Below are positions 13,846 through 53,928 of a stretch of 64,000 bases of DNA, piece by piece. This DNA is from an uncultured delta proteobacterium (GTDB taxonomy: Bacteria > Myxococcota_A > UBA9160 > SZUA-336). The position numbers and the translations under genes are program-made. A model generated the notes under the pieces. The model ran no database searches. It worked only from the letters and a program-made list of their open reading frames with translations, and was not told the DNA's origin. The stretch spans positions 1 through 64,000 of the forward strand of contig CAVPHD010000010.1 of assembly GCA_963704165.1 (NCBI GenBank), written 5' to 3'. The first letter of the stretch is position 1. Every line of letters begins with the position of its first letter.

Positions 13846-14875
13846 CGCGTCCGGAGATGACCGCCGGAACCGTCGCGAGCAGGATTTGCAGATCGAGAAG
13901 CAGCGACCAGCGCTCCACGTACTCGATGTCGAGCTTCACCCAGTCCTCGAACTCGATCTGATTGCGGCCCGAGACCTGCCACAGGCAGGTGATTCCCGGT
14001 CGCATGCTCAGCCGTCCCCTGTGATCGAGCTCGTACCGCTCCACCTCGCCCGGTACCGGAGGCCGCGGACCGACCAGGCTCATGTGTCCGGCGAGGACGT
14101 TCACGAGCTGGGGCAGCTCGTCGATCGAGTACTTGCGCAGGATCCGTCCGACGCGCGTGACGCGCGGGTCGTTCTCGATCTTGAAGACCGGGCCCGATTT
14201 CTCGTTGAGCTCGGAGAGCTCGCTCTTCCGGCTCTCGGCATCGGTGACCATCGTGCGGAACTTCAGGAACGGGAAGATGCGCCCATACCGGCCACACCGC
14301 CGCTGAACGAAGAAGACCGGACCGCGAGAGTCGACCTTGATCGCGAGAGCGGTCGCGAACAGGATCGGAGCGGCGAGAAGCAGAACCGCGAGGGATCCGA
14401 TCAGATCGACGGCGCGCTTGGCCGCGAGCTGCCAGCGTGAACGGTGCCCGTGCACCGAGAACGAGAACGCGGGGACGTCACCGATCCGTGTCACGACGAC
14501 GTGGGCCGCTCGCGTCTCGAACAGGTCGGCGGGAATCGTCAGGTCGATGCCGAGGGTTTCACAGAGGCCGATCGCGTTCGCGACCGAGTCCTGGCTCAGG
14601 AACCGGCGCGGCAGGCCATAGACGACCCAGCCCACGCCCTCGCTCGCCGCCACCTCGCCGAGCCGATCGAGCGCGCCGAGATAGCTCGCGCCCAGACTCG
14701 CCCGGTCGGCCTCCGACGGTTGATCGTCGAGGAAACCGACGACCCTCCGGACGCCGCCTCGCTCGTCCTCGATCGCCTTCGCGAGCCTGCGGGCGCGCCG
14801 GCCCGTCCCGAGCACGAGCGCACGGCTCCGGCTCTGCCGTCCGGTTCCAGAGGAGCGCTCGATCGGGTCGGTCAT
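13835..14875 (-). CDS. Undecaprenyl-phosphate glycosylphosphotransferase (WcaJ/WbaP-like priming sugar transferase)
   Basis: KRAVDL, DS.GPVFF.Q.R.G, KFRTM, DPRVTRVG..LRKYSIDELPQL.NV..G.MSLVGPRP and PGITCLWQVSGRN. Confidence 0.95.
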   Translation of the reverse strand: MTDPIERSSGTGRQSRSRALVLGTGRRARRLAKAIEDERGGVRRVVGFLDDQPSEADRASLGASYLGALDRLGEVAASEGVGWVVYGLPRRFLSQDSVANAIGLCETLGIDLTIPADLFETRAAHVVVTRIGDVPAFSFSVHGHRSRWQLAAKRAVDLIGSLAVLLLAAPILFATALAIKVDSRGPVFFVQRRCGRYGRIFPFLKFRTMVTDAESRKSELSELNEKSGPVFKIENDPRVTRVGRILRKYSIDELPQLVNVLAGHMSLVGPRPPVPGEVERYELDHRGRLSMRPGITCLWQVSGRNQIEFEDWVKLDIEYVERWSLLLDLQILLATVPAVISGRGAS

Positions 14876-14890
14876 TTTCCGCGCTCCCGT

Positions 14891-17126
14891 TCAGCTTCCC
14901 GGCGTGGCGGCGGAATCGTCGCTCTGCTCCGGATGCGTGTAGGGCGAATACATGTAGTTCGGATAGTGCAGGCTGCTCCGGGGATCGACCTGATTGAAGA
15001 CGATTCCGAGCACGCGAGCCCCGGCGCGGCGCAGGTCCTCGCGAATCCTGCGCAGCGCGTGTCGGTCGACGCTCCCCGGTTTGTGCACGAGCAGCGTTCC
15101 GTCCGCGTCCGCGGCGAGCAGAAGCGCGTCGGGCACCGCAAGCAGAACCGCGGAGTCGATCATGATCAGGTCGTACTCGTCCCGGAGATCGGAGACGAGC
15201 TGCGCGAAGGACGACGATCCCAGAAGCTCCGAGGGGTTTTCCGGAACGGCGCCCGCGGGAATGAAGTCGAATTCCGTCCGCTCGGGCCGGACCACCGCAT
15301 CCTCGACGCGCGCCTTGCCTTGCAGGATCTCGGACAAGCCGGGGGACGCGGTTCGCCGCAGCACGCGATGGACGCGCGGCCGGCGCATGTCCGCGTCGAC
15401 GAGGACCACGCGGCGTCCCATCCGGCCGAAGGCTCCCGCGAGATTCACGCAGGTCGTCGTCTTCCCCTCGCCCGCGATCGCGCTCGTCACGAGCAGGACT
15501 TGAAGCTTGGCGGCCCTCATCGCGAACAAGAGAGAGGTGCGCACGTTGCGGTAGCTCTCGCCCGCCGCCGAACCGGGCGCATCGACGGCCTGCCTCTCCG
15601 GCGGCGCCTTGCGGCCTTCGACTCGCGGCACCATCCCGAGCGAGGTCGTGCCGAGCAGCGCCGCGATCGCCAGCGGATCGCGCAGGCGCCGATCGATGAC
15701 CTCGAGCGCGAACGCCAAGCCGAAGCCGAGCCCGAGGGCGAGCACCCAGCCCGCGATCAGGTACTTCTTGCGATTCGGCCCCGCTGGCATCGAGGGCGCG
15801 ATCGCGTAGTCGAGCACGTCCGCGCCCACCTCCTTGGTCGCCGCGGTGAGCAGCGTCTCGTTCCGGCGCGTCATCAGCACCTCGAGAATCTGCTTGTCGA
15901 TCGCGAGCTCGTTGGCCAGCCGACGGTAGCGACCCACGGCCTCCGCCTTCGGCCCCATGGGCATCGACGCCAGGAGATCCACGCGCGACTTCTCCAGCAC
16001 GTTCACGCGCGCGAGCTGTTGCGATTCCTCGGAGAGCAGGCGCTGGTACTCCGTCTCCTCGCCGGGCGTGAGCATTCGCGGCGGGCGACTCGCGACCGAG
16101 CCGAGACGCGAGGACAGGTTCGCGACGACTCCCTCGAGCCGGCGCACCTCCGGATGCGTGGGCGTGAAGCGGAGCCGTGCCGACTCCAGCTCTCCGGTTG
16201 CGAGCTCGTACTGCTCGCGGATCGCGGAAACTCCCGAATCGGCGCCCGCGTCACCCGTCGACGCCGAAGCATGTGGACTGAGCGTCGCGAGCCGCGTCCG
16301 CGCCGACATCAGGTTCACGCGCGCGGCCTGCAGCTCGATCTCGATCTGATCGAGCCCTGAACTCTGCGGCTGATTTCGGCTCTCCTCGAGGACGGCAAGG
16401 GACAGGTTGTTCGTCGATACGATCTCGCTCAGCGCCTGTTCCTTCCGCGCCGCCTGCTCGCGCAGCTCGTACACCTGCTGGTTCAGCCAGGCGACCGCCC
16501 GGCGGGAGGCCTCCTCGCGCTGATCCCCCACGTACTTCACGTACGCGTCGGCGACGGCATTGGCGAGGAACGTCGCGCCGCCGCCGCTTGCCGCCGGCCG
16601 CGGTGATGCGGAGGTAGTTCCCACCACCCGTGAGGCTGACGTCGAGAATCGAGCGCAGCACATTGACGCGCGCCGCTCGATCCTGATCCGCGGTGAGCGG
16701 TACGCTCGCTCCCCCGATCACGGATTTCGCCGCGTCGAGGAAGCTCTTCGGCGCTTCACCACCCGAGGGAAGCTGGTCGACGACTCGTCCGAGCACCGCG
16801 TCGGAGAGAACGAGCGTGATCAGCGCGTCTTCGCTGTTCGACGCGGCCATCCAGCCAGGACTCCGACCATCGCCCGCGCCACCCGGCATGACGTCGGCGC
16901 CGAACTCCATGACCTTCGGCGGGGTCCGGATCACGACCGTGGACGTCGCTTCGTAATAGGACGAGAGCAGGAACGGGACGACGCTCGCTGGAAGCAGAAG
17001 CGGAACGGTGACGAGCAGGATGACGATCCTGCGGCGGCGCAGGAAATCGAGGATCACGCGCGGGTCGAGATCGTTCGCCGAGCCATCGTCTACGAAGCCG
17101 TCGCGTTCGCTTGATTCCGGTCTCAT
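14891..17126 (-). CDS. Wzc-type polysaccharide co-polymerase / BY tyrosine kinase (frameshift near 16580-16600)
   Basis: N-terminal Wzz TM and YEATS, coiled coil, second TM, ESYRNVRTSL, GEGKTT, DADMRRP and a C-terminal Tyr cluster (HYPNYMYSPY). Confidence 0.9.
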
Positions 17127-17182
17127 CCAGTCCCCTTCCGCTGTCTCTCGCCGAGGTCGGATGGTCGAGCCGCGCCCAGAGT

Positions 17183-17198
17183 AGCAATGCCCGTGCCC
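17183..17198 (-). promoter_or_regulatory. Putative sigma54 (-24/-12) promoter of the wzc-transferase-wza operon
   Basis: Minus strand reads GGGCAC-GGGCA-TTGCT with exact GG-N10-GC spacing, about 57 nt upstream of the ATG at 17126. Confidence 0.55.
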
Positions 17199-17348
17199 CG
17201 CCGGAATGCGGCCGACACCGGAACGTGCGCGCTCGGAGGGAAGTGCACCTCCACATTAGACACCCGCGGCGGCCGTCCTCCACAATCCGCCGCCAGCCAC
17301 CGATCTCTGGGCTAACCTGCGGCCCGCGCAAGACCGCACCGGAGACGG

Positions 17349-18209
17349 GTGATGAACACGACGGGTGGGTCCGACGCGAGCCTCGAGGGGCCAACACCAG
17401 CCTCCGGCCATGCGTTGCGTGTGATCTGCCTGATGGCGAGCCTCGCCGCCGCCTGGCCCGCACTTCACCTGCTCTCCTACATCTGGCAGAGCTCCGACTA
17501 TCTCGCGCACGGCTATCTGATTCCGGTCACGTCGATCGGGCTGCTCTGGCTGCGCCGCGCGCGGATTCGCGAGGATCTCGCCACCGCGACCTCCCCGGCA
17601 CTCGGGCCTGCGGTCGTGCTGGCCGCCGCGCTCTTCCACTCCGGCGCCCTGCTCGCGGAAGCGGGAACGTTCGCGGGCATCGGCATCGTCGCGACGATCG
17701 CTGCGACCGCCTACGCGGTCGGGGGCCAGAGGCTCCTGCGCACGCTCGCGCTGCCGGTCGGATTCCTGCTCTTGATGGTCCCGCCGCCGGGATTCCTGCA
17801 GGACCGGCTTCTCTTCGGCCTGAAGGAGATCGTGATCCGAGTTTCGGTCGGGCTCCTGCAGGCGTTCGGATACTCGATCGCTGCGACCGGCAACCGGATC
17901 TTCGTGCCCGGCCACGAGCTCTTCGTCGCGAATGCCTGCAGCGGCCTGACGTCGATCGTCACGCTGATGCCTCTGGGTGTCGTCGTCGCCTACTTCCTCT
18001 CGCACGGCACGTGGCGGCGGTTGCTGATCGTCGCGAGCATCGTGCCGATCGCGGTTCTCGGGAACATGCTGCGCGTGGTGCTCACGGTCGTTCTCGTCTC
18101 CGCCGGCGGCATGGAGTACGCGGAAGGACTGGTCCACGAGAGCTTCGGCGTCGCCACGTTCGCCGGCGGCACGATCGTCCTCGTCGGCCTCGCGAGACTC
18201 CTCCGTTGA
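17349..18209 (+). CDS. Exosortase (EpsH family)
   Basis: Multi-TM protein with HGYLIP, catalytic-type V.NACSG, N.LR and H(ESFG). Confidence 0.9.
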   Translation: MMNTTGGSDASLEGPTPASGHALRVICLMASLAAAWPALHLLSYIWQSSDYLAHGYLIPVTSIGLLWLRRARIREDLATATSPALGPAVVLAAALFHSGALLAEAGTFAGIGIVATIAATAYAVGGQRLLRTLALPVGFLLLMVPPPGFLQDRLLFGLKEIVIRVSVGLLQAFGYSIAATGNRIFVPGHELFVANACSGLTSIVTLMPLGVVVAYFLSHGTWRRLLIVASIVPIAVLGNMLRVVLTVVLVSAGGMEYAEGLVHESFGVATFAGGTIVLVGLARLLR

Positions 18210-18868
18210 CGACGCTGCGGCTCGTGCTCGTCCTCGCGTTCGTCTCGCTGCCGCTCCTGGCCGAGCGCGTGGTGGATCTGCGAGCCCGATCGACGCACGT
18301 CTTCGACGCGAACGCCCTGCCCGATCGAATCGCTGCGTACCGGCAGATCCGCGACGAAAAGCTCGGCGGCGAGATCGTCTCGATGCTCGAACCCGAGTCG
18401 TACACGATGCGGCTGTACGGAGACGACCAGGACTCGTTCGTCTGGCTCTACTTCGCGATCTACTCGGGATCGGACTCGACCGGCGCACACGACCCGGCCG
18501 TCTGCTACCCGGCTCAGGGTTGGGACACGAGCGCGCCGACGGAGCTGGAGCTCGAGACCGCCGATGGCGAGCGAATGGCGGTGAAGACGATCGCCGCGAC
18601 GCTCGGAGGCCGGGAGGAGCGGGTCCTGTACTGGTTCCAGCCGGCATCGCGTTGGCCGACCACGACTCCGCGCGAGCAGATCCTGCGCATGATCGACGGA
18701 CTCGCCGGTCGCTCGCAATACGGCTTCGTACGGCTCTCGATGCAGGTCGAGCGACCCGGCGACGCCGCACGGCGCGCGGCGGATGCGAAGCTCAGCGCCA
18801 TCGCGATCGAACTCGGACCCGCCTTGAGGCGAGCGGTCACGGGCGAAATCGAATCGACGCTCCCCTGA
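18206..18868 (+). CDS. EpsI-family exosortase-associated protein
   Basis: TTG start overlaps the exosortase stop. Motifs HDPAVCYPAQGW, VLYWFQ and FVRLS. Confidence 0.88.
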   Translation: MTTLRLVLVLAFVSLPLLAERVVDLRARSTHVFDANALPDRIAAYRQIRDEKLGGEIVSMLEPESYTMRLYGDDQDSFVWLYFAIYSGSDSTGAHDPAVCYPAQGWDTSAPTELELETADGERMAVKTIAATLGGREERVLYWFQPASRWPTTTPREQILRMIDGLAGRSQYGFVRLSMQVERPGDAARRAADAKLSAIAIELGPALRRAVTGEIESTLP

Positions 18869-30317: not shown

Positions 30318-31000
30318 CCGGCGACCTGCGGCCCGCAACGCCGCCCGCTGCACCCGATCCGCGTCGGCTGTTTCCGCGCGGTGTCTCGGTGCTCTCGAGC
30401 CCGGTGCTCGACACGCTCGACGGGCTGCACCCGTCCGAACGCGCGTGCGTGGACCGCGCCGTGGCGAAGCGCCAGCACGAGTTCGCGACCGGCCGGCTGC
30501 TCGCGCGCCGCCTGCTCGCGCGACTCGGAGCTCCCGACTTCGCGCTGCTCGCCGGTTCAGATCGCGCGCCGATCTGGCCGCCGGGCGTGATCGGGTCGAT
30601 CTCGCACTCGCACGGTCTGTGCGTGGTCGTGGTCTCGCCGCGCGGCGCGCTCGCCGGACTCGGAGTCGACGTCGAGGAAGCCGGGGCCGTGCATCCGGAG
30701 CTCTGGCGACGCGTGCTGCGACCCGAGGAAGAGAGCTGGTTGCGCTCACGGCCGTTCGCGGAGCAGCGCCGACTCGCCGCGGTCTTCTTCAGCGCGAAGG
30801 AAGCGCTCTACAAGGCGCAGTATCCGATCACGCGCGCGCGACTCGGCTTCCACGACGTCTCGCTCGAGCTCGAAACTTCGAACGGGACGTTCCGCGCGCG
30901 CGTGCCCGGCTTCACGCGCCCCCTCGCGGGATCGTTCGCGATCGACGACCCGTGGGTCCTGACCGGGCTCGCGCTCGCCGCCGTGGACGTGCCCGCGTGA
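30305..31000 (+). CDS. 4'-phosphopantetheinyl transferase (EntD/Sfp type)
   Basis: KRQHEF..GR, P.WP.G.IGSISHS, GLGVDVE and FSAKEALYKA. Confidence 0.93.
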   Translation: MSVVTGDLRPATPPAAPDPRRLFPRGVSVLSSPVLDTLDGLHPSERACVDRAVAKRQHEFATGRLLARRLLARLGAPDFALLAGSDRAPIWPPGVIGSISHSHGLCVVVVSPRGALAGLGVDVEEAGAVHPELWRRVLRPEEESWLRSRPFAEQRRLAAVFFSAKEALYKAQYPITRARLGFHDVSLELETSNGTFRARVPGFTRPLAGSFAIDDPWVLTGLALAAVDVPA

Positions 31001-36579: not shown

Positions 36580-37801
36580 TCACGCGCCGTGCGCGCGGCC
36601 CACCACCGAGGCGAAGAGCTTGGCGAGCTTCTCCGCCTCGCGGCGCGCGTCGTGGGCGAGCTGGACCCGCGCACGACCCGCCTGGCCCAGCTCGAGAAGC
36701 CGTTCGGGCGGTGCATCGAGCGCCTCCCGCATCGCACCCACCAGCGCGTCGACGCTTCCCGACGTCACCAGCCAGCCGGTCTCGCCGCTCTCGACGAGCT
36801 CGGGAATTCCCGCGATCTGCGTCGCGATCGCCGGGCGCGCGAGCGCGAACGCCTCCATGATCACGACGGGCAGTCCCTCGCCGAAGCTCGGCAGAACCAG
36901 TCCGCGCGAATCGAGCAGCTCGTCACGGACGTCCTCGCCGGATTTCCAGCCGAGGAAGCGGACGGTCTCGCCGAGCTGGCGCTCGCGAACCATGTCTTCG
37001 AACAAGCCGCGGAGCTCGCCATCGCCGATCAGGCGCACCTCGAAGCAGTGTCCCTCGGCCACGAGCCGCGCGCACGCCTCGACCAGGATCGCGTGCCCCT
37101 TCGAACGGCCGAGCCGGCCGACGCAGACCAGGCGCTTCGCCTCGGGGGGTGTCGCGACCGGGGCGTCGAGGAATTGCTCGTCGACACCGCAGCGGATCAC
37201 GTGGATCTTCTGCCAGTGCTCGGGATGGGACCAGCGGTAGGTCTGGCTGCGCGCGAAGTCGGTGATCGCGGCGACGAAGCTCGCCCGCGCGACCTTTTCG
37301 CCGAGGCTGATCTCCTGCGGACTGTCGAACTCGCCCGGCCCGTGGACGGTGAAGCTGAACGTGAGATCTCCGAGGGCGGCCGCGATCATCGCGACCATCG
37401 TCGCGTTCGTCCCGAAGTGCGCATGCACGTGCGAGACGCCCTGCGCGCTCCATGCTGCGCCAGAGCGCGCAGGCCTCGGCGAAGTACCCGAAGTGGCGCA
37501 CGAGACCTCGATGGGAACCCACCCCCCAACGAGTCGCCTGCCAGAGCGCAGACAGGAATCGCCGCGGCCGGGCCAGCAGCATCGCCACGACGTGCACGAG
37601 CAGGCCCGCGACGCCGCGCTCGAGGAGCGCCTCCGTGAGCTCGAGCTCGCGCCGGTCGGCGGGATCGGGAAGCGGCTCGCGCGCGGGCCGGATCGCCAGT
37701 CGGTGCACGCGGACGCCCGCGCGTTCGAGCCCAGCGATCTCGCGCCGGATGAACGTGTGCGTCGTCAGCGGATATTGGTTCGAGAGGTATGCGACTTTCA
37801 T
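36580..37801 (-). CDS. Glycosyltransferase family 4 (WcaL-like), frameshift near 37440
   Basis: YP..THTFIRREI, HAHF, TVHGPGEF, VGRL..KG and EGLPVVIMEA. Confidence 0.9.
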
Positions 37802-37898
37802 GTCATTTCCGGCCCACGGCCAACGTCGTCCGCGCCTGCCGCGCTTCTCATCGGCAGACGAGACCCCCAGACGAGAGCCTAGCGGAGCACCGGGAAGG

Positions 37899-38912
37899 TC
37901 AGGCCTTGTACTCGATCAGATCCGTACGGCGACCGTACACGTAACGGTTGAGCCCGAAGCGGATCACGCCCAGAAACTCGGCGAATTTTCCGATCACGCA
38001 CGCGGACGCGTAGAGCGACGCCGTCGATCCATCGTAGCCGCGCCGCAACGTCACCGCGCGTGCGCGCAGCCAGGGCCCGAGATACGCGAAGGCGGGCAAG
38101 ATCGCCCATCCCGGAGCGAGCGATCCCAGCGCGAGCGAGAGAGCTGCGGGGCCGATCGACCACGCGACGATCGACGCCAGCGGCCGGACCGCGAGCCCTT
38201 GACCACCGCCGCCATGCATCGAGGCGAGCTCCGCGTACGCGTGTCCGGAGCGCTCGCTTCGGCGCCAGAACTGCGCGAACCGCAACATCGCGGCGTCGTG
38301 CAGCGTCATCTCGCGGTCGATCCTCGCGATCCGATGGCCGCTTTTTCGGATCCGGTGGCAGAGTTCGGGCTCTTCGCCGGCGATCAGCCTCGGATCGAAT
38401 CCGCCCACGCTGCGCAGGACGTCGGCGCGCATCATCGCGTCGCCGCCGCAGCTGCGTGCTTCGCCGATCGGCGTGTCCCATTCGAGGTCGATGATCCGGT
38501 TGTAGCGGCTCGCGTTCGGAAACCGCTCACGGCGCCGGCCGCAGACGACCGAGACTTCGGGACTTCGGTCGAGGAACTCCGTCGCCGTCTCGAGCCAGCC
38601 GGGCTGGACTTCGCAGTCCCCGTCCACGAACTGCACGTAGCGAAGCTCGGGAACGAGGTCGAAGAGCCGATCGAAGCCGGCGTTGCGCGCGCGCGCCGCG
38701 GTGAACGGAATCGAGGTGTCGAGCCCGACGACCTCGGCGCCCGCCTCGCGCGCGGCTTCGACGCTCGCGTCCGTCGAGCCGCTGTCGACATAGACGATTC
38801 GGACGCGAGCGAGTCGCAGGGATGCGAGACAGCGAACCAGGCGCTGTCCTTCGTTGCGTCCGATCACCACCGCGCCGAGCGTGCCCGACGGCGATCGCCC
38901 CGGAGCTTCCAT
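37899..38912 (-). CDS. Glycosyltransferase family 2 with C-terminal TM segments
   Basis: VVIGRNEG, YVDSGSTD, AARARNAG, FVDGD and GEEPEL. Confidence 0.92.
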   Translation of the reverse strand: MEAPGRSPSGTLGAVVIGRNEGQRLVRCLASLRLARVRIVYVDSGSTDASVEAAREAGAEVVGLDTSIPFTAARARNAGFDRLFDLVPELRYVQFVDGDCEVQPGWLETATEFLDRSPEVSVVCGRRRERFPNASRYNRIIDLEWDTPIGEARSCGGDAMMRADVLRSVGGFDPRLIAGEEPELCHRIRKSGHRIARIDREMTLHDAAMLRFAQFWRRSERSGHAYAELASMHGGGGQGLAVRPLASIVAWSIGPAALSLALGSLAPGWAILPAFAYLGPWLRARAVTLRRGYDGSTASLYASACVIGKFAEFLGVIRFGLNRYVYGRRTDLIEYKA

Positions 38913-39093: not shown

Positions 39094-40215
39094 GTGGCGA
39101 TCGAGGTCGTTCCTTACACTGAAGAGTGGATACCCGCGGTCGCCGCTTTCAACCGGCGGATGGCCGCGGCGGGGATGCACTGGACCTGGTACGCGACGCC
39201 CGTCGATCGCTGGCTGCCCACGCGCGGCGACGCGCGAACCTGGCGTGAGCACTACCTGGCGGTCGAGGACGGCACGGACGTCCGCGGTGGGTACGCGCTG
39301 AAGCCGCACGAGTGGTGGATTCGCGGCTCGACGCAGCTCGTGACCGACTGGCAGGGGCCGATCACCGAGGGCGTGTACAGCCGCAGGTACAACACGCTCG
39401 GGCTGCGGCTTCTGCGCGAGATGCTGCGGCAGTATCCGTTGCTCTACAGCTGGGGGCACGGCGGGCTCGAGCAGCCGATGCTGGTGATGCTCGAGAAGCT
39501 CGGCTGGCTGATCCACCGGACACCGTTCTGCCTGCGCGTGCTTCGGCCGTTCCGATTCCTGCGGCGAAACGCGTTCCTCAGGGACTCGCCCGCGCGCCGG
39601 CTCGCGCTCGATCTCGCGGCGTTCTCGGGCGCGGGGAGCATCGGCCTGCGCGCGCTTCACTTCGCGCAGCTCGCGCGGAACCGGCGAAGCGAGGTGGCCC
39701 GAGCCGCGGAGTTCGAGCGGTTCGGAAGCTGGGCGGACGAGCTCTGGATGCGCGTCCGAGACCGGTACACGGCCGTCGCGCTTCGCGACTCCGCGACGAT
39801 GAACCACCTCCTGCCCCACGGCGGTTGGCCCGATGCGCGAAAGCTGCGCATCACGCGCGGCGCGGAGACGCTCGGCTGGGCGGTCGTCATGGACACCGCG
39901 ATGGAGGACGACCGGCGCTTCGGCCGCTTGCGCGTGGGCTCGATCGTCGATGCGCTCGCGCTGCCCTCGGACGCCGAAGCCGTCGTCGGTGCCGCATACC
40001 GCGATCTGCGCGCTCGCGGCGTGGACATCGTGATCTCGAACCAGGCGCACCCCGCCTGGGTTTCGGGATTCGCCGCACACGGATTCGCGATTCTCGAGAA
40101 TCGCCGCGCCTTCGCCGCATCTCCCGAGCTCCAGCGCGTGCTGTCTCCATTCGAGGAGACGCGCCTCGGGCTGCACCTCACGAACATGGACGGCCACGGG
40201 CCGATGCGCCTCTGA
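39094..40215 (+). CDS. Hypothetical protein, probable tandem GNAT/FemAB-like acyltransferase fold
   Basis: Long ORF from a GTG start with typical GC3 coding pattern. The beta-strand/helix pattern (YSRRYNTLGLRLL..LEKLGW) resembles GNAT. Fold assigned by eye only. Confidence 0.5.
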   Translation: MAIEVVPYTEEWIPAVAAFNRRMAAAGMHWTWYATPVDRWLPTRGDARTWREHYLAVEDGTDVRGGYALKPHEWWIRGSTQLVTDWQGPITEGVYSRRYNTLGLRLLREMLRQYPLLYSWGHGGLEQPMLVMLEKLGWLIHRTPFCLRVLRPFRFLRRNAFLRDSPARRLALDLAAFSGAGSIGLRALHFAQLARNRRSEVARAAEFERFGSWADELWMRVRDRYTAVALRDSATMNHLLPHGGWPDARKLRITRGAETLGWAVVMDTAMEDDRRFGRLRVGSIVDALALPSDAEAVVGAAYRDLRARGVDIVISNQAHPAWVSGFAAHGFAILENRRAFAASPELQRVLSPFEETRLGLHLTNMDGHGPMRL

Positions 40216-40421: not shown

Positions 40422-41282
40422 ATGGAAACCGCGACTGAACTCGCCGTTCGCCTCTCCAAGGCGAGCCGAAAGAAGTTCTACAACGTCTATACCGCCTTCG
40501 ACTGGCCCGAGTCCCTGGACGACTCGCGCTGGTGCATGCCGCCGGAGCTGATCTCCCTGTATGGGACGCCCGCCTGGGAGAAGCTCGACGACGCGCAGCG
40601 GCACCGGCTCTCGCTCCACGAGATGGCGAACCTCTTCAGCCTGACCGGCCAGGGCGAGGGCCCGCTGGTGCAGGGTCTGATCAGCCAGATGTACCCCCAC
40701 AACGACGCCGACATCACCGGCTACCTGCACCACTTCCTCGACGAAGAGAACAAGCACATGGTGATGTTCGCGGAGTTCTGCCAGCGCTACATCGGCAAGG
40801 TCTACCTGTACAAGAAGCTCGCCCTGCCCCGGGAGTACGAGAAGGGTGAAGAGGACGTGGGCTTCTTCATCAAGGCGCTGACCGTCGAGGAGATCGGCGA
40901 CTACTACAACGTTCTGGCCGGCAAGGACGAGCGTGTGCACCCGATCGTGCGCGACGTGAACAACCTGCACCACAGCGACGAGGCGCGGCACATCGTCTTC
41001 GGCCGCGAGGTGCTGCGAAGCACGTTCGCGGAGCACTCGCCGAAGTGGTCGAAGGAGACGCTCGAAGGCGTGCGCGAGTGGATCGCGAACTACCTGCGCT
41101 CCTCCTGGGCGGACTTCTACAATCCGTCGGTCTACCGCGACGCCGGCGTTCCCGACGGATACGCCGCGCGCGAGTTCGCGCTCGGCTCCGAAGTCTGCCG
41201 TGAGCACCGAAAGCGCGCGTCGGAGAAGCTGGTCTCGTTCCTCCTCGAGGCCGGCATTCTCGAGGTCGAGCCCGTCCTCTGA
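40422..41282 (+). CDS. AurF-family ferritin-like diiron oxygenase (N-oxygenase-like)
   Basis: PELISLYGTPAWEKL, GE, DEENKH, EEIGD and H.SDEARH form a diiron ligand set. Confidence 0.85.
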   Translation: METATELAVRLSKASRKKFYNVYTAFDWPESLDDSRWCMPPELISLYGTPAWEKLDDAQRHRLSLHEMANLFSLTGQGEGPLVQGLISQMYPHNDADITGYLHHFLDEENKHMVMFAEFCQRYIGKVYLYKKLALPREYEKGEEDVGFFIKALTVEEIGDYYNVLAGKDERVHPIVRDVNNLHHSDEARHIVFGREVLRSTFAEHSPKWSKETLEGVREWIANYLRSSWADFYNPSVYRDAGVPDGYAAREFALGSEVCREHRKRASEKLVSFLLEAGILEVEPVL

Positions 41283-41536
41283 TGCTCGAGTCCGAAGTTC
41301 GCGAGCAGCTCCGCGCCTGGATCCTCCGGCGTTCGCAGTCCAAGGCGACGACCGAGCTCAAGGACGACACGCCGATCCTCGAATCCGGCCTGTTGTCCTC
41401 GCTCGACGTCGTCGAGCTGATCCTCTTCATCGAGAACCTGAAGGGCGCCGAGGTCGACGTCGACGACATCGAGCCGGAAGTCCTGACGAACGTGAACACG
41501 ATCTACGAGGGATTCTTCCGCGGGGAAGCCGCGTAG
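41282..41536 (+). CDS. Stand-alone acyl/aminoacyl carrier protein (DltC-like)
   Basis: 84-aa acidic protein, DDTPILESGLLSSLDVVELILFIE, translationally coupled to the oxygenase (TGATG). Confidence 0.85.
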   Translation: MLESEVREQLRAWILRRSQSKATTELKDDTPILESGLLSSLDVVELILFIENLKGAEVDVDDIEPEVLTNVNTIYEGFFRGEAA

Positions 41537-41564
41537 CGTCTCGAGCGCGGCGGGGAGCGATGTC

Positions 41565-42626
41565 GTGAGCTTGCGATCGACCCTCCGATCCGCGCTGGTT
41601 CGGTCCGCCGCCGTCGGTCTCGGACTCGGCATCGGCCTGGTCGCGGCGGAGCTCGCGCTGCGCATCGTCGCGCCGCAGGAGAAATCCTGGCTCGACATCT
41701 ATCGCGTCGATCCGGTGCTGCCCCTCGTCTCGCTCGCCCCGAACGTCTCGACGACGGTCGAGACCGGCGAGAGCCGCTGGCACGTCCAGACGGACGCGGG
41801 CGGCCATCGCGTCGGCCGCGCGGGGCCCGCGGATCCCTCGGGCCGGTCGCTGCTCGTGCTCGGTGACTCGTTCGCGTTCGGGCACGGCGTCGACTTCGAG
41901 GAATCGTTTCCGGCGCTGGTCACCCAAGAGCTCGACGGTGGATTCCGACTCGTCAACACGGGCGTGCCGGGATTCGGTCCGGTCCAGTACCGCCAGATCC
42001 TCGAGTCGATGCTCGAATCGGGCGAGCGCCCGTCGGCGATCCTGCTGAGTCTCTATCTCGGCAACGACTTCCTCGACTGCATCTGGAACAAGCGCGTGCA
42101 GGTCGTCGACGGAACCATGGTCGAGGAGTCGGGTCGGCTTCGGACCTGGCTGAAATTCAACCTCCACGCGTACCGCCTGGCGAGCAAGGTCTATCAGCGC
42201 GCGCTCGCATGGAGCCGACCGGGCCGGAACCCCGAAGAAGCGCTCTTCGATCCCGAGGCCTGGCGAAGCGGCGATCCCGCGCGGGCGTTCGAGATCTTCA
42301 GGACGGAGCTCGCCCGGATCGGCGAGCTCGCGCGCGCAGCCGGAGTTCCGATTCTCGCGGTGGTGATTCCGAAGGAGACGTCGCTCTTGCACGCCTCGGC
42401 ACCCGCGAACGCGGAGCTCGACTACGGTCTGCCGCTCGCGAAGGCCACGCAGGCGCTCGACGCCTCGGACATTCCGTACGTCGATCTGACCGAGGCGCTG
42501 CGAATGCTCGGCGCCCGCGAGGCGTACTTCGCGCGCGACGGCCATCTGACGCGGCCCGGCAACCGCGAAGCCGCCGCCGAGATCGTCCGCGCCCTGAGCG
42601 CGCTGCTCGCCGCGCCGGCGAGCTAG
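41565..42626 (+). CDS. Membrane-anchored SGNH/AlgX-like protein
   Basis: N-terminal TM, LGDSFAFG, NTGVPGFG, YLGND and DGHL. Confidence 0.85.
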   Translation: MSLRSTLRSALVRSAAVGLGLGIGLVAAELALRIVAPQEKSWLDIYRVDPVLPLVSLAPNVSTTVETGESRWHVQTDAGGHRVGRAGPADPSGRSLLVLGDSFAFGHGVDFEESFPALVTQELDGGFRLVNTGVPGFGPVQYRQILESMLESGERPSAILLSLYLGNDFLDCIWNKRVQVVDGTMVEESGRLRTWLKFNLHAYRLASKVYQRALAWSRPGRNPEEALFDPEAWRSGDPARAFEIFRTELARIGELARAAGVPILAVVIPKETSLLHASAPANAELDYGLPLAKATQALDASDIPYVDLTEALRMLGAREAYFARDGHLTRPGNREAAAEIVRALSALLAAPAS

Positions 42627-43804
42627 AAGAGCTGCCGCTCGAGCTCGCTCGCGATCGTCCGCGCGATGACTCGCGCTCCGTTCTCGTTGAAGTGGATCCC
42701 GTCGTAGTAGAGATCCTCGCGCTCTCCGAGCAGCGCGGGGAGGTCGATGAACGCGACCTTCTCGCGGCTCGCGACCTCGCGCATCCGGTCGTTGAACTTC
42801 GCGAGCAGCGAGAGCATGTCGTCGGGGCTGAGATAGGACGTGCCGCCGTCCATCGCGCCCATCCAGAGCTTGTCGAGATCCGCGTCCTTCGAGAAACGGC
42901 TCTGGATCAGCTGGGCCACGAAGACGGGCTCGGTATTCGCGCGCCGCGCGGCCGCGATGAAACGCTCGAGATTCGCACCGTACGCGTCGAGCGCGAGCGG
43001 CAGGGTCTCGAGCTTCGCGTTCGGAACCTGCTTCTTCTCGATCGCCGCGCGCTTGGCGCGTTGGTCCTCCATCCAGCGGAGTTCCGCGTCCTGCTCGATC
43101 CGCCCTTCCTCGCGTTGCCTCGCGATCAGCAGCGACTTCACCCTGCTCTTCAGCGCGCTCGCGCGCTTCCACGTTTCGAGGCGCTTGTACCAGGGCCAGT
43201 GATCCGGTGTGTACCGACTCACTCGAAATGCCTCACCGAGCCGCCCTTCCCAATGACTCGGGTCGTCCAGGTACTTCGGATCGAAGCTCTCCGCGTAGAG
43301 CCAGGCTCCCATGTCGTTCAGGCCGGAATAGAGCAGCACGTAGTCGAGGTCCGGGATCTCCGGAAGCAGGTAGAGCGCGTGCATCAGATGGTGCTGGCTG
43401 TTGTGCCCGTCGATCGCGGCATTGCCGACCCAGTACGCCTTGGGATCGTTCGCGTCCTCGTCGAGGTAGCGCATCAGCAGCGCGGGCCAGGTCTCGGCGT
43501 CGTCGAGCACCGTGCAGGCGGTCGTGCTCCCACCCACCGTCAGGATTCGCACCCGCTCGCCGTCCGGCTCCGGCCCGCGCGTGCCGAAGCTGTTCGTCGA
43601 GAAGTAGGAGACACCGGAGACCCCCGGAGTGATCGCCTCCGATGGGTGGAAGACCTCGAGCGCGTTGCGGTGGTAGGGATAGAAGCTCTGGGGGTCCCGC
43701 AGCCACCGGAGGGCGCCCTCGAGAGCCACGAAGCAGAGCAGGCTCGAGACGACGAGCAGGGCCAGCGACAGAAGACCGGAAGCGAGTCGCGACCGCCCGG
43801 TCAC
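42623..43804 (-). CDS. Membrane-anchored SGNH/GDSL-family protein
   Basis: GTG start overlaps the upstream stop. TM, NSFGTRG, GGSTT, GLND and YDGIHFN. Confidence 0.85.
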   Translation of the reverse strand: MTGRSRLASGLLSLALLVVSSLLCFVALEGALRWLRDPQSFYPYHRNALEVFHPSEAITPGVSGVSYFSTNSFGTRGPEPDGERVRILTVGGSTTACTVLDDAETWPALLMRYLDEDANDPKAYWVGNAAIDGHNSQHHLMHALYLLPEIPDLDYVLLYSGLNDMGAWLYAESFDPKYLDDPSHWEGRLGEAFRVSRYTPDHWPWYKRLETWKRASALKSRVKSLLIARQREEGRIEQDAELRWMEDQRAKRAAIEKKQVPNAKLETLPLALDAYGANLERFIAAARRANTEPVFVAQLIQSRFSKDADLDKLWMGAMDGGTSYLSPDDMLSLLAKFNDRMREVASREKVAFIDLPALLGEREDLYYDGIHFNENGARVIARTIASELERQLF

Positions 43805-45426
43805 GAAGAGGACTCCGACGCGAGCGTCGCGAGCAGCGCGCCGCGATCGATCTTTCCGTTCGCGTTCAGCGGGAACACCGAGACGAGGCGTAGCTCGCGG
43901 GGCACCATGTAGCTCGGCAGCCGGGCCTTCAGCCGTTCGAGGATCGGATCGAGGTCGAGTTCGTCGGCGCCGAGAAATGCGACCACGCCGTCGGCGCCGC
44001 CGGCGTTTCGCGGCCAACCGACCGCGATCGCCGCATCGATTCCCGCCTCTTCGCGCAAGGCGGCCTCGATCTCGCCGAGCTCGACGCGATAGCCCTGGAT
44101 CTTGATCTGGTTGTCGATGCGCCCGAGGTAGACGAGCGGCTCGTCGCGATTCGGACGTCGCACGCGATCGCCGGTGCGGTAGAAGACCCGGTCACGGCCC
44201 GGAGGAACGACGAAGGCGGCCCGCGTGCGCTCGGCATCGTGCCAGTAGCCGAGCGAGAGCTGGGGGCCGGTCATGAGCAGCTCGCCGATCTCGCCCGGCG
44301 CGACCTCGACCTGCGACTCGTCGGCGACGAGCACCTCCATCTCCGGAAACGGCGCTCCGATCGGTACCACGCCCTGCTCGCACTCTCCGGGCGAGCGATC
44401 GGCGTCCCAGCGGTAGAGCGTGCACGCGATCGTCAGCTCGGTCGGTCCGTACAGGTTCTCGACGATCGAATTCGGCGCGGCACCGGCCCAGGCACGCGCG
44501 ACCTCGATCGGCAGCGCCTCGCCGCAGAAGAGGCTCACGCGCAGGTTCGGGAACGCGTCGGGCTTCAGCTTGCGGAGCTTGGCGAGCAGCATCCCCGTGG
44601 ACGGCACCGAGAACCAGATCGTGAGCCGCGATTCGTTGATGAACGATGCCGGCACGAGCTTCGTCTTCTGCGACGGAACGCAGACGCACGCGCCGCGTTG
44701 CCACGCGACGAAAATGTCGAAGGCCGAGAGGTCGAAGGTCAGGTCGAACATCTGCGAGAACCGATCGCTCTCGCGAACTCCGTACCGCTCCACCATCGCG
44801 TCCACCACGTGACCGACGTTGGCTTGCGACACCATCACGCCCTTGGGGTCGCCCGTGCTACCCGACGTGAAGAGCAGGTAGGCGAGCGCATCCGCGGACA
44901 CGGCCCGCGGCACGAAGGCCGGGAGCGCGTCGTCCGAACGGACGATCTCGAAGCGGTGCATCGGCCAGCGCGCGCGGAGCTCGGCCGCGGGCGACGCCGC
45001 AGGCAGGACGAGCACGAGCGGCCGTGACACGTTCGCGAGCACCGCCTCGAGCTCGCTCATGGCGTTCCCATCGACGATCACGTCGCGGCAGCCGGAGCGC
45101 TCGAGCATCCGCGCGCTGCGTTCGGCGGGAAAGGCGGGATTGAGCGGCACGTAGCCGTGCCCGCGAAGCAGCGCGGCCAGGATGCCGGCGAAGGCCAGCT
45201 CCGATCGGTGCCCGAAGACGGCGGTCAGCGGCGGATCGGAGCTCGCGGAGATCTCCTCGAGCATCCCGGCCAGGTTCGACGCCGTGCGGTACAGGCCCGC
45301 GTAGCTGAGCTCTCGCCCGTCGATCTCGAGCGCGGGCCGCTCACCGTGGCGCTCGAACGCGTCCACGAACCTCGATGCCAGGCCGCGCATCACGACACCG
45401 GCGCCGACGACGGCCTTTCGCGCCAC
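43801..45426 (-). CDS. Stand-alone amino acid adenylation enzyme, DltA (D-alanine--carrier protein ligase)-like; start may be the ATG at 45390
   Basis: FTSGSTGDPKG, FDLS, WFSVPS, SLFCGE, NLYGPTE, YRTGD, QIKIQGYRVELGEIE and NANGKIDR. No T domain. Confidence 0.9.
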   Translation of the reverse strand: MARKAVVGAGVVMRGLASRFVDAFERHGERPALEIDGRELSYAGLYRTASNLAGMLEEISASSDPPLTAVFGHRSELAFAGILAALLRGHGYVPLNPAFPAERSARMLERSGCRDVIVDGNAMSELEAVLANVSRPLVLVLPAASPAAELRARWPMHRFEIVRSDDALPAFVPRAVSADALAYLLFTSGSTGDPKGVMVSQANVGHVVDAMVERYGVRESDRFSQMFDLTFDLSAFDIFVAWQRGACVCVPSQKTKLVPASFINESRLTIWFSVPSTGMLLAKLRKLKPDAFPNLRVSLFCGEALPIEVARAWAGAAPNSIVENLYGPTELTIACTLYRWDADRSPGECEQGVVPIGAPFPEMEVLVADESQVEVAPGEIGELLMTGPQLSLGYWHDAERTRAAFVVPPGRDRVFYRTGDRVRRPNRDEPLVYLGRIDNQIKIQGYRVELGEIEAALREEAGIDAAIAVGWPRNAGGADGVVAFLGADELDLDPILERLKARLPSYMVPRELRLVSVFPLNANGKIDRGALLATLASESSS

Positions 45427-45601
45427 GATCGATCCCGAATCCCGTCACGCTCGATCATTTTCTCTCCCGAACCCTCGTGCGCGGGCGCACGTTCATGTAC
45501 CCGATCTGCGGTACATCGACCACAGCGGGTGCGCGCGAAAGACGATGGTAGGATCGTCAGCCATTCCGGAGTGAAGGCCGAGCGAGAGGCGGGCGATCGC
45601 G

Positions 45602-47207
45602 GTGAACTTCGACTCACTCCAGTACCTGCTCTTCCTGCCGGCGGTCTACACGCTGTATCGGCTGCTGCCGCACCTCGGGCAGAACCGCATGTTGCTCGTC
45701 GCCAGCTACTTCTTCTACGGCTGCTGGGACGTCCGATTCCTGTCGCTGATCATGCTCTCGACGGCGTTCGACTACGCGAGCGCCCTGATGATCGATCGCG
45801 GCGCGCTCGAGCGCCGGCAGGGATTCGCGGCCGCGGCCTGGGCCGTGCTGGGGATGGTCGTCTTCGTGGCGATCGACTGGCCGCAGGTCTTCGCTCCCGA
45901 TTCCACCGGCAGCGTTCTGACGCGCACCGGCGTTCTCGCGTCGCTGGCCGTCGCTTCGGTCTGCGTCGTCGCCGCCGCGGGCTACGGGCGTTTCACGGCG
46001 CTTCCCGAGCGAACCCGGCGCCGCGCTGCGCTCGTGGCGAGCCTCGTCGTGGACCTCGGCGTGCTCGGGTTCTTCAAGTACTTCAACTTCTTCGTCGGAA
46101 GCCTCGAGGAGCTTTTCCGGGACTTCGGCGTTTCGGCCGCGCACTGGCATCTCGACGTGGTGCTCCCGGTCGGGATCTCGTTCTACACGTTCCAGACGAT
46201 GAGCTACACGATCGACGTCTATCGCGGTCGCCTCCGCGCCACCGACAGCCTCCTCGACTTCGCGCTCTTCGTGTCCTTCTTTCCGCAGCTCGTGGCGGGC
46301 CCGATCGAGCGCGCCACGCATCTCCTGCCCGCGCTCGTCGGCACGCGACGCGTGCGCCTCGATTCCGTCGACGCGCGGCCTCTACCTGATCCTGCTCGGG
46401 CTCTTCAAGAAGGTCGCGATCGCGAACGGCGTGGCCCAGTCGGTCGACTCGATCTACAACTCGACGCATGCCGCCAGCGCCGGCGACGTCGCGCTCGCCA
46501 CGGCGCTCTTCGCGATCCAGATCTACTGCGACTTCTCCGGCTACACCGACATCGCGCGCGGCAGCGCGAAGCTCCTCGGCATCGATCTGATCGAGAACTT
46601 CCGGCAGCCGTACTTCTCGACCAACCCGAGCGAGTTCTGGCGGCGCTGGCACATCAGCCTCTCGACCTGGCTGCGCGACTACCTCTACATCCCGCTCGGC
46701 GGAAACCGCGGCGGCGGCGTCGCGACCTACCGCAACCTGATGCTGACGATGCTGCTCGGCGGGCTCTGGCACGGCGCCGCCTGGAACTTCGTCCTCTGGG
46801 GCGCGTTTCACGGCGGAATTCTCTGCGTCCATCGGCTCGCGAGCGGCGGGCGCGTGGCGGCGCGCGGCAGCTGGCACTACCCGAAGATGCTCCTCTTCTT
46901 TGCCCTCACCTGCTACGGCTGGCTGCTCTTCCGCGCGAACTCGTTCGAGCAGATCGCGTCGTTCACGCAGACGCTCGTGACCGGCGCGAATGCGTTATCG
47001 CTCTCGATCCACCCTCCGACGTTCGCGGCGTTGATCGGCCTGCCCGTCCTGTTCCTGCTCGAAGCCTTCGAGTACGCACGCGGCGACCATCTCCACTACC
47101 GCGGCCTTCCGCCGTGGGCGAGAGGCGCGCTCTACGCGGCGTTGATCTTCGTGATCCTCCTCGGCACCAGCAATGAACCCACCCAATTCATCTACTTCCA
47201 GTTCTGA
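45602..47207 (+). CDS. MBOAT-family O-acyltransferase (AlgI/PatA/DltB-like), frameshift near 46375
   Basis: ASYFFYG.W, FFKY.NF, LPVGISFYTFQ, FFPQLVAGPI.R, DFSGYTD, FWRRWHISLS and GLWHGA.W. Ends FIYFQF. Confidence 0.93.
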
Positions 47208-48327
47208 GCCCGCGTTCCGCGCGCAGCTTCGCGACCTGGTCTCGGTCGTCGCGTGGAGCCTCGCGTGGCTTCTGGCGATCGACGTCGGTCTCGGCCTCTG
47301 GCTCGGGGATCCACCGCGTGGACCCGCACGAGTCGAAGGCCAGCTGCAGCGCTACTTCGAGTACGGACGCTCCACCGAGGGCAAGATCCGCGCGATGATC
47401 GGCGCTTCGGACGATCTCACGCATCCGCTCGCCCTCTCGGGCTGGATCGAGCCGCCGAAGGATCAGCCCCGCACCCCGCCGGAGGGCAGCGAGCGACTCG
47501 TCGCGGTGTACGGCATGTCGTTCAGCGCCAATGCCGCGCTGGCGATGCACGAGCAGGATCCGACGCTCGCGGTGCGGAACGCCGGCGGACCCGGCGCCAC
47601 CCTCGCCCACTCCTACGCGATGTACCTGCGCGACCGAAGCGAGCACGACGCGAGCGTGATCGTGCTCGCCGTGCTCGCGTCGAGCTTTCCGAGCCTCTCG
47701 ACGCTCACGCACGCGACCTGGAACTTCGAAGCGCCGTCGCCGCACTTCTACCCGAGGTTCACGCTCGACGACGGCGCGCTGGCCTCGATCTCGGCGCCGA
47801 TCGACTCACTCGACGATCTCCGTGGCGCGCTCGCGGACTCCGAACGTTTCGACGAGCTCGTGCACGTGCTCGAGCGAGACGACGTGTTCTACGACCCGCT
47901 CGTCTTCCGGGAATCACGGCTCGACGGCTCCGTGATCGCGCGAACGATCCGCCGCGCATGGGGGCAACGCGCGAAGCGTGCGACGATCGGCCGCTTCCAC
48001 GACGCGCACGGCTTCACCAACGACCTCGACGCGGTCGAGATCGCGCGTGCGATCGTGCGCGAGTTCGTCACTCGGGTCCGCGCCGACGCGAAGCTCCCCG
48101 TCCTGCTCCTGATCCACGACCAGGGCTACGCCGACCATCTCTTCCTGGCCCTTCGCCCGGTGATCGGGGAAACCGGCGTGGACTTCGTCAGCACCCACGA
48201 GATCGCGCCTGCGATGGACGGTTCGAACTTCGTCCGCGACGGGCATTTCACGCACGCGAACGATCTCCGAATCGGGAAGGCGCTCGGCGACGTGATCCAC
48301 CGGGCGTCGCCACTTCCGCCTCGCTAG
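47173..48327 (+). CDS. MBOAT-associated membrane-anchored SGNH-like protein (DltD/AlgJ analogue)
   Basis: Overlaps the MBOAT 3' end. N-terminal TM, VAVYGMSFS and C-terminal DGHFT..N. Confidence 0.65.
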   Translation: MNPPNSSTSSSEPAFRAQLRDLVSVVAWSLAWLLAIDVGLGLWLGDPPRGPARVEGQLQRYFEYGRSTEGKIRAMIGASDDLTHPLALSGWIEPPKDQPRTPPEGSERLVAVYGMSFSANAALAMHEQDPTLAVRNAGGPGATLAHSYAMYLRDRSEHDASVIVLAVLASSFPSLSTLTHATWNFEAPSPHFYPRFTLDDGALASISAPIDSLDDLRGALADSERFDELVHVLERDDVFYDPLVFRESRLDGSVIARTIRRAWGQRAKRATIGRFHDAHGFTNDLDAVEIARAIVREFVTRVRADAKLPVLLLIHDQGYADHLFLALRPVIGETGVDFVSTHEIAPAMDGSNFVRDGHFTHANDLRIGKALGDVIHRASPLPPR

Positions 48328-53598: not shown

Positions 53599-53919
53599 AT
53601 GAAGGATCCGATCTCGCAGTACTGTCTGCGGATGCCGCGGCCGGCGTACGACGACGCGCTCGATGTCGCGCTGGTTTTCGGCCTCAGCATGAACCAGTTC
53701 CTCGTCGGCGCGGTTCGACACTACGTACAGACCCAGCTCGAGCAGGAGTCCATCCACACGGCGGTGTCGAAGGTGCGCGAAGCCCGCAAGGCCGGTCTCG
53801 CGCACGGCTTGGTTGCGCAGCTCGCGGGCGGAACGGACACCCGCATCGGCTCGGGCACGCGCCGGAAGCGCGGCGTCTCCGCTTCACCCGAGCCCGACGA
53901 GGCGTCGAAACGCGCGTAG
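53599..53919 (+). CDS. Arc/HicB-like ribbon-helix-helix DNA-binding protein, paralogue 1
   Basis: QYCLRMP-helix-GLSMNQFL pattern matches the Arc RHH signature. Purine-rich RBS upstream. Confidence 0.7.
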   Translation: MKDPISQYCLRMPRPAYDDALDVALVFGLSMNQFLVGAVRHYVQTQLEQESIHTAVSKVREARKAGLAHGLVAQLAGGTDTRIGSGTRRKRGVSASPEPDEASKRA

Positions 53920-53928
53920 ACGGCGATC

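Follow-up and report, generated by a model that had tools for sequence, protein, structure and literature searches.

The DNA analysed here (hereafter the window) is a 64,000-nucleotide stretch, positions 1 to 64,000 of contig C10, from the 3.87-Mb, 84% complete assembly of an uncultured delta proteobacterium. It carries, within an exopolysaccharide (EPS) locus, genes for a tandem-GNAT transferase, an AurF-fold diiron enzyme, a carrier protein and a stand-alone adenylation enzyme (below, the ligase), which together with a polysaccharide deacetylase form a conserved unit. We propose, at about even confidence, that the GNAT, the diiron enzyme, the carrier and the ligase build an N-oxidised glycyl group and attach it to an amino sugar of the exopolysaccharide; the reactions are predictions, whereas gene content, folds, motifs and co-occurrence were observed. 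The broader claim, that an N-nitroacetyl or N-hydroxyiminoacetyl substituent occurs on exopolysaccharides in at least three phyla and is installed by a new, carrier-protein-dependent family of tandem GNATs, is put forward a little more cautiously, at just under even confidence. An original prediction for these genes had described a Dlt-like pathway in which an MBOAT protein exports a carrier-bound, N-oxidised small amino acid. Its oxidation half is supported by the ligase pocket, the diiron ligand set and the nearest relatives. Every Dlt family cut-off was failed, and the borders of the system had to be moved, since the GNAT gene (39094-40215) had been missed and the MBOAT gene wrongly included.

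The neighbourhoods of the diiron gene were compared in the best 80 of 269 relatives from GTDB, labelled as Myxococcota, Pseudomonadota and Planctomycetota (at least one locus labelled 'Spirochaetaceae', L060, belongs with the window's class relatives, being the same place as in genome G082). By tblastn, a carrier was found in 62 of these loci, a ligase-like gene in 62 (including some distant paralogues from nonribosomal peptide synthetases, NRPS), the GNAT in 51, the MBOAT in 6 and the SGNH partner of the MBOAT in 4. The linkage of diiron enzyme, carrier and ligase far exceeds chance. Sixty-four of the 80 loci held a carrier or a GNAT after gene calling and are termed cassette loci; because both genes define the class, their counts within it are partly circular, and because the codon-model gene caller used for the open reading frames (ORFs) can miss short or frameshifted genes, gene-cluster counts are lower bounds. 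Read in this way, the GNAT lies immediately 5' of the diiron gene in 43 cassette loci and the carrier immediately 3' in 54, and the tandem GNAT is the most tightly linked partner of the diiron enzyme. A CE4 deacetylase was present in 28 of the 64, a DUF2334 deacetylase in 13, both in none, and an MBOAT in 6. Among the 41 cassette loci with at least 8 kb on either side, these counts were 35 for the GNAT, 30 for a deacetylase and 6 for an MBOAT.

A similar picture was obtained with whole-genome profiles of 101 class-level relatives, including the window genome (G000). The close diiron subfamily was found in 14 genomes and the close GNAT in the same 14, a distant GNAT being present in G092 as well. 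Within genera the distribution is patchy, the diiron gene being present in 5 of the 12 genomes from the genus to which the window belongs. The CE4 orthologue was detected in nine genomes, all among the 14, apart from one weak match; DUF2334 was found in six of the 14, in G026 and as one weak match; and a linked deacetylase of one type or the other accompanied the cassette in 14 of 14. In 401 genomes of the phylum, a set that overlaps the 101 and in which only four to six candidates were scored per genome, the GNAT and the diiron enzyme were each found in 14 and shared by 13; one exception (G121) has a diiron-carrier pair with a tRNA-synthetase-like ligase. The partners may also lie apart: a GNAT was encoded elsewhere in 11 of 19 genomes whose diiron locus was without one, in G055 the carrier adjoins the GNAT 28 kb away from the diiron gene, and in L073 the cassette partners are likewise 28 kb from it. 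Among cultured bacteria, Rhizobacter sp. J219 has a diiron enzyme of the cassette type (WP_257825639.1).

The diiron enzyme (40422..41282, plus strand) belongs to the AurF family, as originally predicted (PF11583, E 1.6e-47), and the best fold matches of its model are CmlI and AurF. Its ligand set is complete (E79, E109, H112, E156 or E157, H183, E187 and H190, with roles assigned by spacing rather than from a metal-bound model), and all seven AurF ligand positions are conserved without exception in the 80 relatives compared. This includes the seventh His, which the accessible part of PMC12154687 gives as characteristic of ferritin-like N-oxygenases. The carrier gene (41282..41536, plus strand) encodes a stand-alone protein of 84 residues whose likely phosphopantetheine site is Ser40, a residue found in all 15 of the sequences aligned. 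Its start overlaps the diiron stop by one base at 41282, in agreement with the translational coupling that had been noted; its description as DltC-like could not be kept, as it scored 21 bits against DltC models with cut-offs of 52 and 68.

The nearest annotated relatives of the diiron enzyme (33-37% identity) accompany carriers and glycine-type ligases, together with a nitronate monooxygenase or an S-adenosylmethionine (SAM) methyltransferase. They were found on plasmids, where 24 records matched; among the six examined from the strongest of these (L111-L116), a ligase lies nearby in all six (two of them by reading of the sequence), a carrier in five, a nitronate monooxygenase in three and a SAM methyltransferase in two. 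In a set of 11 proteins, the profile of the window carrier family picked up the carriers from five nitronate-type cassettes on plasmids (E 1e-7 to 4e-16). In the window cassette, ligase, carrier and diiron enzyme occur together as they do in glycine-nitronate carrier cassettes. The plasmid cassettes match the glycine-nitronate chemistry on a carrier that is cited second-hand in the available text of PMC9967187, with which we infer that they belong, and the glycine oxime of althiomycin, made with the Alb2/AlmD oxygenases (PMC3445576, seen in excerpt). These comparisons suggest that the diiron enzyme probably N-oxidises a carrier-bound amine.

The ligase is encoded on the minus strand (43801..45390, with an alternative start at 45426) and is a stand-alone amino-acid adenylation enzyme (TIGR01733, 325 bits, cut-off 317) from the neighbourhood of AlmE, IdnL7 and VinM. 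It remained far below the DltA cut-offs (250 vs 560 bits for TIGR01734 and 260 vs 476 for PRK04813). The earlier reading of its pocket as D-L-F-F-L-C-L-I-A-K was confirmed, and the best PDB matches of the pocket region were 6akd (IdnL7), 8k4r (which we take to be VinM) and 4oxi (AlmE), with DltA far behind. At nine aligned pocket positions the window enzyme is identical to AlmE at six and to IdnL7 at six, and it has L236/C301, as AlmE does, without the C/A/T of IdnL7. According to the part of PMC11253843 available, L248/C316 form the glycine gate of AlmE, C217/A285/T318 are the L-amino-acid signature of IdnL7, and DltA has smaller neighbours (Ala, Thr) that admit D-Ala; at the positions that appear to map to this Ala and Thr the window enzyme has Phe and Phe. 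The pocket Cys had been noted as one retained from DltA, and it is no pointer to D-Ala because glycine-specific AlmE also has it; D-Ala as a substrate on the strength of the Cys alone was consequently rejected. Among 52 cassette ligases the pocket code is identical in 40 and reads DLHFLCLIAK, with the third-place His of AlmE, in 8, and the ligase of an Azospirillum plasmid cassette has the same pocket as that of the window. Judged from these pocket residues, glycine, loaded on the carrier, is quite likely to be the substrate and is our best call.

The GNAT gene (39094..40215, plus strand, with a GTG start inferred from homologues) encodes a tandem-GNAT transferase with an NMT/Eis-like fold (NMT, N-myristoyltransferase), which we propose accepts the carrier-bound acyl group. 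Searched by sequence, it matched nothing in Pfam, NCBIfam, PDB or plasmids, none of the 94 members compared belongs to a Pfam or NCBIfam family, and none of the 94 matched TIGR03019 (VimA / PEP-CTERM FemAB-like) at E 0.1. The family comprises at least 587 proteins, and the DGHGP stretch at its C-terminus is invariant. The AlphaFold2 model (pLDDT 93) gave Eis, NMT and tandem GNATs as its best matches with Foldseek and VIA, the best being NMT and Eis-like proteins (Z 18, root-mean-square deviation 4.7, 303 aligned), and GNAT clusters were also indicated for this protein in the ESM Atlas, at low shares. A sister GNAT (38% identity) lies in an operon (L134:7061-11196, G092:C41) with a luciferase-like flavin monooxygenase, an adenylation enzyme and a carrier. 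Through this ligase-carrier operon the GNAT family is linked to carriers without recourse to the diiron enzyme. The tandem GNAT fold together with a linked CE4 deacetylase recalls the VimA-type pairing, and we consider it probable that the GNAT moves an acyl group onto the amine of a deacetylated sugar.

A surface polymer as the destination, also part of the original prediction, is in agreement with the presence of EPS genes in 57 of the 64 cassette loci. In the window, EPS and exosortase genes at 13081..18868 (Pfam) encode a Wza-like export protein, a priming sugar transferase, a Wzc-like ATPase, the exosortase EpsH and EpsI (DUF3485). Genes for a GT4 (frameshifted) and a GT2 glycosyltransferase (36580..38870, minus strand, Pfam) are divergent from the GNAT gene, and the GT2 family is present in 26 of the 64 cassette loci. 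This large, exosortase-type EPS locus runs on along C10; outside the window it encodes a flippase, WecG and, adjoining WecG at 74409-75251, a cassette-type CE4 deacetylase. A 4'-phosphopantetheinyl transferase (30389..31000, plus strand; PF17837 1.4e-26, PF01648) could prime the carrier.

On the basis of the pocket, the pathway would begin with adenylation of glycine by the ligase and its loading onto the phosphopantetheinylated carrier. The fold, ligands and relatives of the diiron enzyme point to a second step in which this enzyme, with O2 and a reductase from elsewhere, would form a hydroxyimino- (oxime) or nitro/nitronate-acetyl thioester. We lean slightly towards the oxime over the nitro product, as glycine oxygenation in the akazaoxime and althiomycin pathways stops at the oxime unless O-methylation ensues. 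As co-occurrence suggests, the CE4 or DUF2334 deacetylase may unmask the amino group of an N-acetylhexosamine that is part of a nucleotide sugar or a lipid-linked repeat unit. Finally, ahead of Wzx/Wzy export, the cytoplasmic tandem GNAT would pass the carrier's oxidised acyl group to this amino group, forming an amide. The adjoining MBOAT-SGNH pair would likely O-acetylate the same polymer independently.

Several observations weigh against this proposal. The identity of the diiron enzyme to AurF and CmlI is only about 16%, a phmmer search with it did not reach either protein, the profile gave E 1.3, and the cassette is without a reductase gene. In 6 of 6 plasmid diiron enzymes (L111-L116) Ile replaces the first Glu ligand of AurF, so that their chemistry may not transfer to the window enzyme; a quick tree joins them to the window family with an SH-aLRT of 82 and long branches. 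With three monooxygenases and two methyltransferases as queries, no nitronate monooxygenase or O-methyltransferase was matched by tblastn in the 80 loci. Pocket codes are predictive and are not proof, and AlmE also activates D-Ala, weakly (PMC11253843, accessible part). The GNAT fold leaves the donor unspecified, and most of its solved relatives take acyl-CoA. Concerning linkage, 15 of the 80 diiron loci are orphans, with neither carrier nor ligase nor GNAT, G405 has the GNAT on a 5.9-kb contig with no detectable diiron gene, G026 has DUF2334 without the cassette, and the CE4 gene of the window genome is 29 kb from the ligase gene; kin genomes, moreover, are not independent in the co-occurrence counts. 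Finally, the MBOAT-SGNH type of the window lies less than 10 kb from the diiron gene in four loci of distant groups (L002, L020, L063 and L076), many of the loci used for the reciprocal MBOAT comparison described below are short, and EPS loci can exceed the flank.

The order of the last steps may differ from the one proposed: the GNAT could transfer plain glycine and the diiron enzyme then oxidise the glycyl-sugar, or the oxidised group could decay to a cross-linking glyoxylyl aldehyde. The precedent of VimA for transfer of plain Gly (PMC7468200, in the portion available), the orphan diiron paralogues without carrier and the ligand set, unlike that of the carrier-dependent plasmid enzymes, all speak for such a route. 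It is nevertheless unlikely in our estimate, as the diiron gene is coupled to the carrier gene and is kept beside it even with another ligase and no GNAT (L079, G121), and no homologue of a nitronate monooxygenase was found in the 80 loci.

A diiron enzyme that hydroxylated the carrier-bound unit at carbon, desaturated it or halogenated it as CylC does, with the GNAT transferring the product, would fit the chemical diversity of ferritin-like diiron enzymes described in the accessible part of PMC12154687, the low identity to AurF and the flavin monooxygenase that takes the place of the diiron enzyme in L134. The seventh His and the full AurF ligand set in 80 of 80 relatives argue for N-oxidation instead, glycine has little carbon for desaturation, and the ligase is of the amino-acid and not the fatty-acid type; with CylC compared by context only, we regard this alternative as improbable.

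The oxidised glycyl-carrier might also serve as the starter of the formyltransferase-A-LLM NRPS and polyketide synthase (PKS) of the locus, as in althiomycin or akazaoxime. The NRPS was found in 17 of the 101 genomes, of which 11 are cassette genomes (11 of 14), the diiron gene and ligase of L073 lie between a PKS and an NRPS, and known glycine oxygenases supply NRPS starters (PMC9967187 and PMC3445576, as far as these texts are available). However, three of the 14 cassette genomes, among them the single-contig G068, gave no match to the NRPS, which is present in six genomes without the cassette; it also opens with its own formyltransferase-A loading module. An NRPS/PKS as obligatory acceptor was rejected on the three genomes, and the starter role as such appears very improbable. 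To a similar degree we doubt that the acceptor of the GNAT is a protein N-terminus, a lipid or a small molecule of the locus, for instance an exosortase anchor sugar or cargo. NMT and Eis as best structural matches, EpsH and EpsI in the window locus, and a speculation in the available part of PMC7468200 about amino-acid-modified linker sugars in PEP-CTERM systems would favour such an acceptor, against which stand the full co-occurrence with a sugar deacetylase, the failure of all 94 GNAT members to match TIGR03019 and the EPS genes in all but 7 of the 64 cassette loci.

The export half of the original prediction concerns the genes downstream of the carrier and beyond the ligase. The SGNH gene placed after the carrier was found there (41565..42626, plus strand; PF16822, 2.4e-07); it encodes an accessory SGNH/AlgX-like protein with a hydrophobic N-terminus, and its family, present in 6 of the 64 cassette loci, is not conserved with the cassette. 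The ligase on the minus strand does face these genes as described, with a second, previously overlooked accessory SGNH gene intervening (GDSL-2; 42623..43804, minus strand; PF13472, 1.9e-14), which is coupled behind the ligase, overlaps its stop and is also found in the same-genus genome G007; it had no tblastn match in the 80 diiron loci. On its other side the ligase is indeed divergent from an MBOAT gene and an SGNH-like gene. The MBOAT (45602..47207, plus strand; PF03062) is of the PatA/AlgI type with a C-terminal FIYFQF shuttle and is likely a separate O-acylation module; its gene, as assembled, carries an additional base near 46362 and with it a frameshift relative to the intact copy of G007, which has the same gene order. 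Its partner (47173..48327, plus strand, start uncertain) was identified by alignment, has no Pfam match and ends in a DGHF motif.

Against DltB the MBOAT scored 95 bits on its C-terminal half, below the cut-off of 375, and its FxYxxF shuttle motif is fused at the C-terminus in place of a separate DltX-type shuttle. In the accessible portion of PMC12148441, this fused type auto-acetylates from acetyl-CoA in PatA, and the pathways described with it are without a carrier protein. The MBOAT family occurs in 57 of the 101 genomes. An MBOAT was found near 6 of the 80 diiron loci, two of the six being of other types (L015, L054). Reciprocally, in the best 80 of 141 metagenomic loci of the SGNH partner (48 of the 80 shorter than 10 kb), the MBOAT adjoins the partner in 73 and the neighbours are ordinary EPS genes; the diiron enzyme, carrier and GNAT occur in 1 of 80 (L148, a G007-like contig), or in 1 of 32 when loci below 10 kb are set aside. 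The MBOAT and its SGNH partner form a module of the PatA/AlgI type, which is mostly found without the cassette. A DltB-like route, with the oxidised aminoacyl group passing from the carrier to the MBOAT and then being placed by the SGNH protein as an O-ester on the polymer outside the membrane, would have in its favour the divergent arrangement in the window genome and G007, the four further loci with the pair within 10 kb of the diiron gene (Myxococcota, beta- and gamma-proteobacteria), and the four closest SGNH copies of the 101 genomes, all in cassette genomes (two of them built the profile). A close partner was detected in 4 of the 14 cassette genomes, leaving 10 in which none was found; more distant copies occur in three non-cassette genomes. 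The MBOAT linkage is conserved in neither direction, an outcome that the original prediction had itself named as refuting; Dlt/MBOAT export was rejected as the main route on these counts, and we consider it the least probable alternative.

Variants of the system were also recorded. The 15 orphan diiron genes include paralogues in Sphaerotilaceae and kin (L003, L006-L009, L013, L025, L027, L029, L032 and L041); 11 of the 15 are divergent from a stand-alone luciferase-like monooxygenase gene, often as a second copy in cassette-bearing genomes. In a subtype (L066, L075, L080 and L141) the diiron-carrier pair converges on another ligase (pocket D-N-F-F-I-A-M-V-D-K) and is accompanied by an FAD monooxygenase. 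In L079 and L248:9786-11775 a tRNA-synthetase-like ligase replaces the A domain beside a diiron-carrier pair without GNAT; L079 keeps the first Glu ligand, and this pair forms a bridge to the nitronate-type cassettes. The Ile at that position in the plasmid enzymes may mark a distinct metal site. The right ends of L015, L022, L026, L028 and L033 hold a second carrier cassette (tRNA-synthetase-like ligase, DUF1839, acyl-CoA dehydrogenase and carrier), and L015 also bears a carrier-FkbH-short MBOAT arrangement. The L134 operon, whose sister GNAT clade has 165 matches, has the same logic with a different oxygenase, and no diiron or MBOAT match was found in the 18 kb fetched there. A 2-oxoglutarate-Fe(II) oxygenase (c13 cluster, e.g. 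L068:7760-8587) occurs in 14 of the 64 cassette loci, often adjoining the GNAT.

Inside the EPS locus of the window, positions 19183-30317 hold the frameshifted formyltransferase-A-LLM-carrier NRPS and a KS-AT-KR-DH PKS, which are followed by the phosphopantetheinyl transferase and a crotonyl-CoA reductase-like gene (32988-34238). The same locus contains, at 34372-36563, an M55 D-aminopeptidase-like gene and a gene for a 460-residue protein without a Pfam match, likened by eye to CoA-ligase-like capsule proteins. Three tandem paralogous small ORFs (87-106 residues, no assigned family) lie at 53599-54621. Frameshifts are common in the window (GT4, NRPS and MBOAT), homologues of nitronate monooxygenase are encoded elsewhere in G000, unlinked, and no promoters or terminators were found in a scan.

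Among the matches listed in the literature searched, which was thin on subscription papers, neither a glycan substituent with an N-O bond nor an AurF-type diiron enzyme linked to an exopolysaccharide was found. Each half of the proposed pathway has precedent; for their combination, for the GNAT family and for the predicted substituent, no description appears to exist. If correct, the proposal would join the carrier-bound glycine N-oxygenation of antibiotic pathways with deacetylase-GNAT aminoacylation of sugars, and would give a function to a so far unannotated family of GNATs, with at least 587 members, and to a subgroup of DUF2334. The cell-surface glycan would then bear an ionisable, metal-binding and reactive N-O group, possibly a latent aldehyde for cross-linking, and this group may be a natural handle for chemistry on microbial polymers. 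That ligase, carrier and MBOAT genes adjoin one another is insufficient for a Dlt-like label.

Five known systems can be compared with the cassette. As in the DltABCDX system of Gram-positive bacteria, a ligase, a carrier, an MBOAT as well as an SGNH protein are encoded side by side in the window genome and the pocket Cys is common to both, but all family cut-offs failed, the MBOAT has its own shuttle motif in place of DltX, and it does not travel with the ligase and carrier. The PatAB and AlgIJ O-acetyltransferases share with the pair at 45602-48327 the C-terminal FxYxxF and the adjoining SGNH-like gene, the window MBOAT being of a subtype of about 535 residues with an unnamed SGNH partner. 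AlmE/AlmF/AlmG of Vibrio cholerae, which place glycine on lipid A, likewise use a free carrier and a stand-alone ligase with the L236/C301 pocket (6 of 9 positions); that system has no oxygenase and its target is lipid A, AlmG being a lipid acyltransferase.

In the Wbp/Vim pathway of Porphyromonas gingivalis and Tannerella forsythia, a deacetylase unmasks the sugar amine (VimE, CE4) and a GNAT (VimA) adds Gly or Ser to it (PMC7468200, available part), and asparagine-synthase-like genes, found nearby in 16 of the 64 cassette loci, are a further likeness. The portion of PMC7468200 available describes no carrier, ligase or oxygenase for it. The window GNAT fails TIGR03019 and is likened to VimA by description only. 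The fifth comparison is with the glycine-carrier N-oxygenation systems, reportedly described by He and Ryan in 2021 for enteromycin carboxamide and akazaoxime/A-76356. They differ from the window cassette in their nitronate monooxygenase and O-methyltransferase types, which were not found in the 80 loci, in the first ligand, a Glu kept in the window family and an Ile in the plasmid enzymes, and in their NRPS/PKS acceptor, in place of which the window has a GNAT, a deacetylase and EPS genes. They share with it a ligase, a carrier and an AurF-fold diiron enzyme, predicted in the window to act on glycine as well. It is in the plasmid cassettes that match this pattern by annotation that the nearest diiron relatives are encoded, along with carriers homologous to that of the window and, in Azospirillum, a ligase with an identical pocket.

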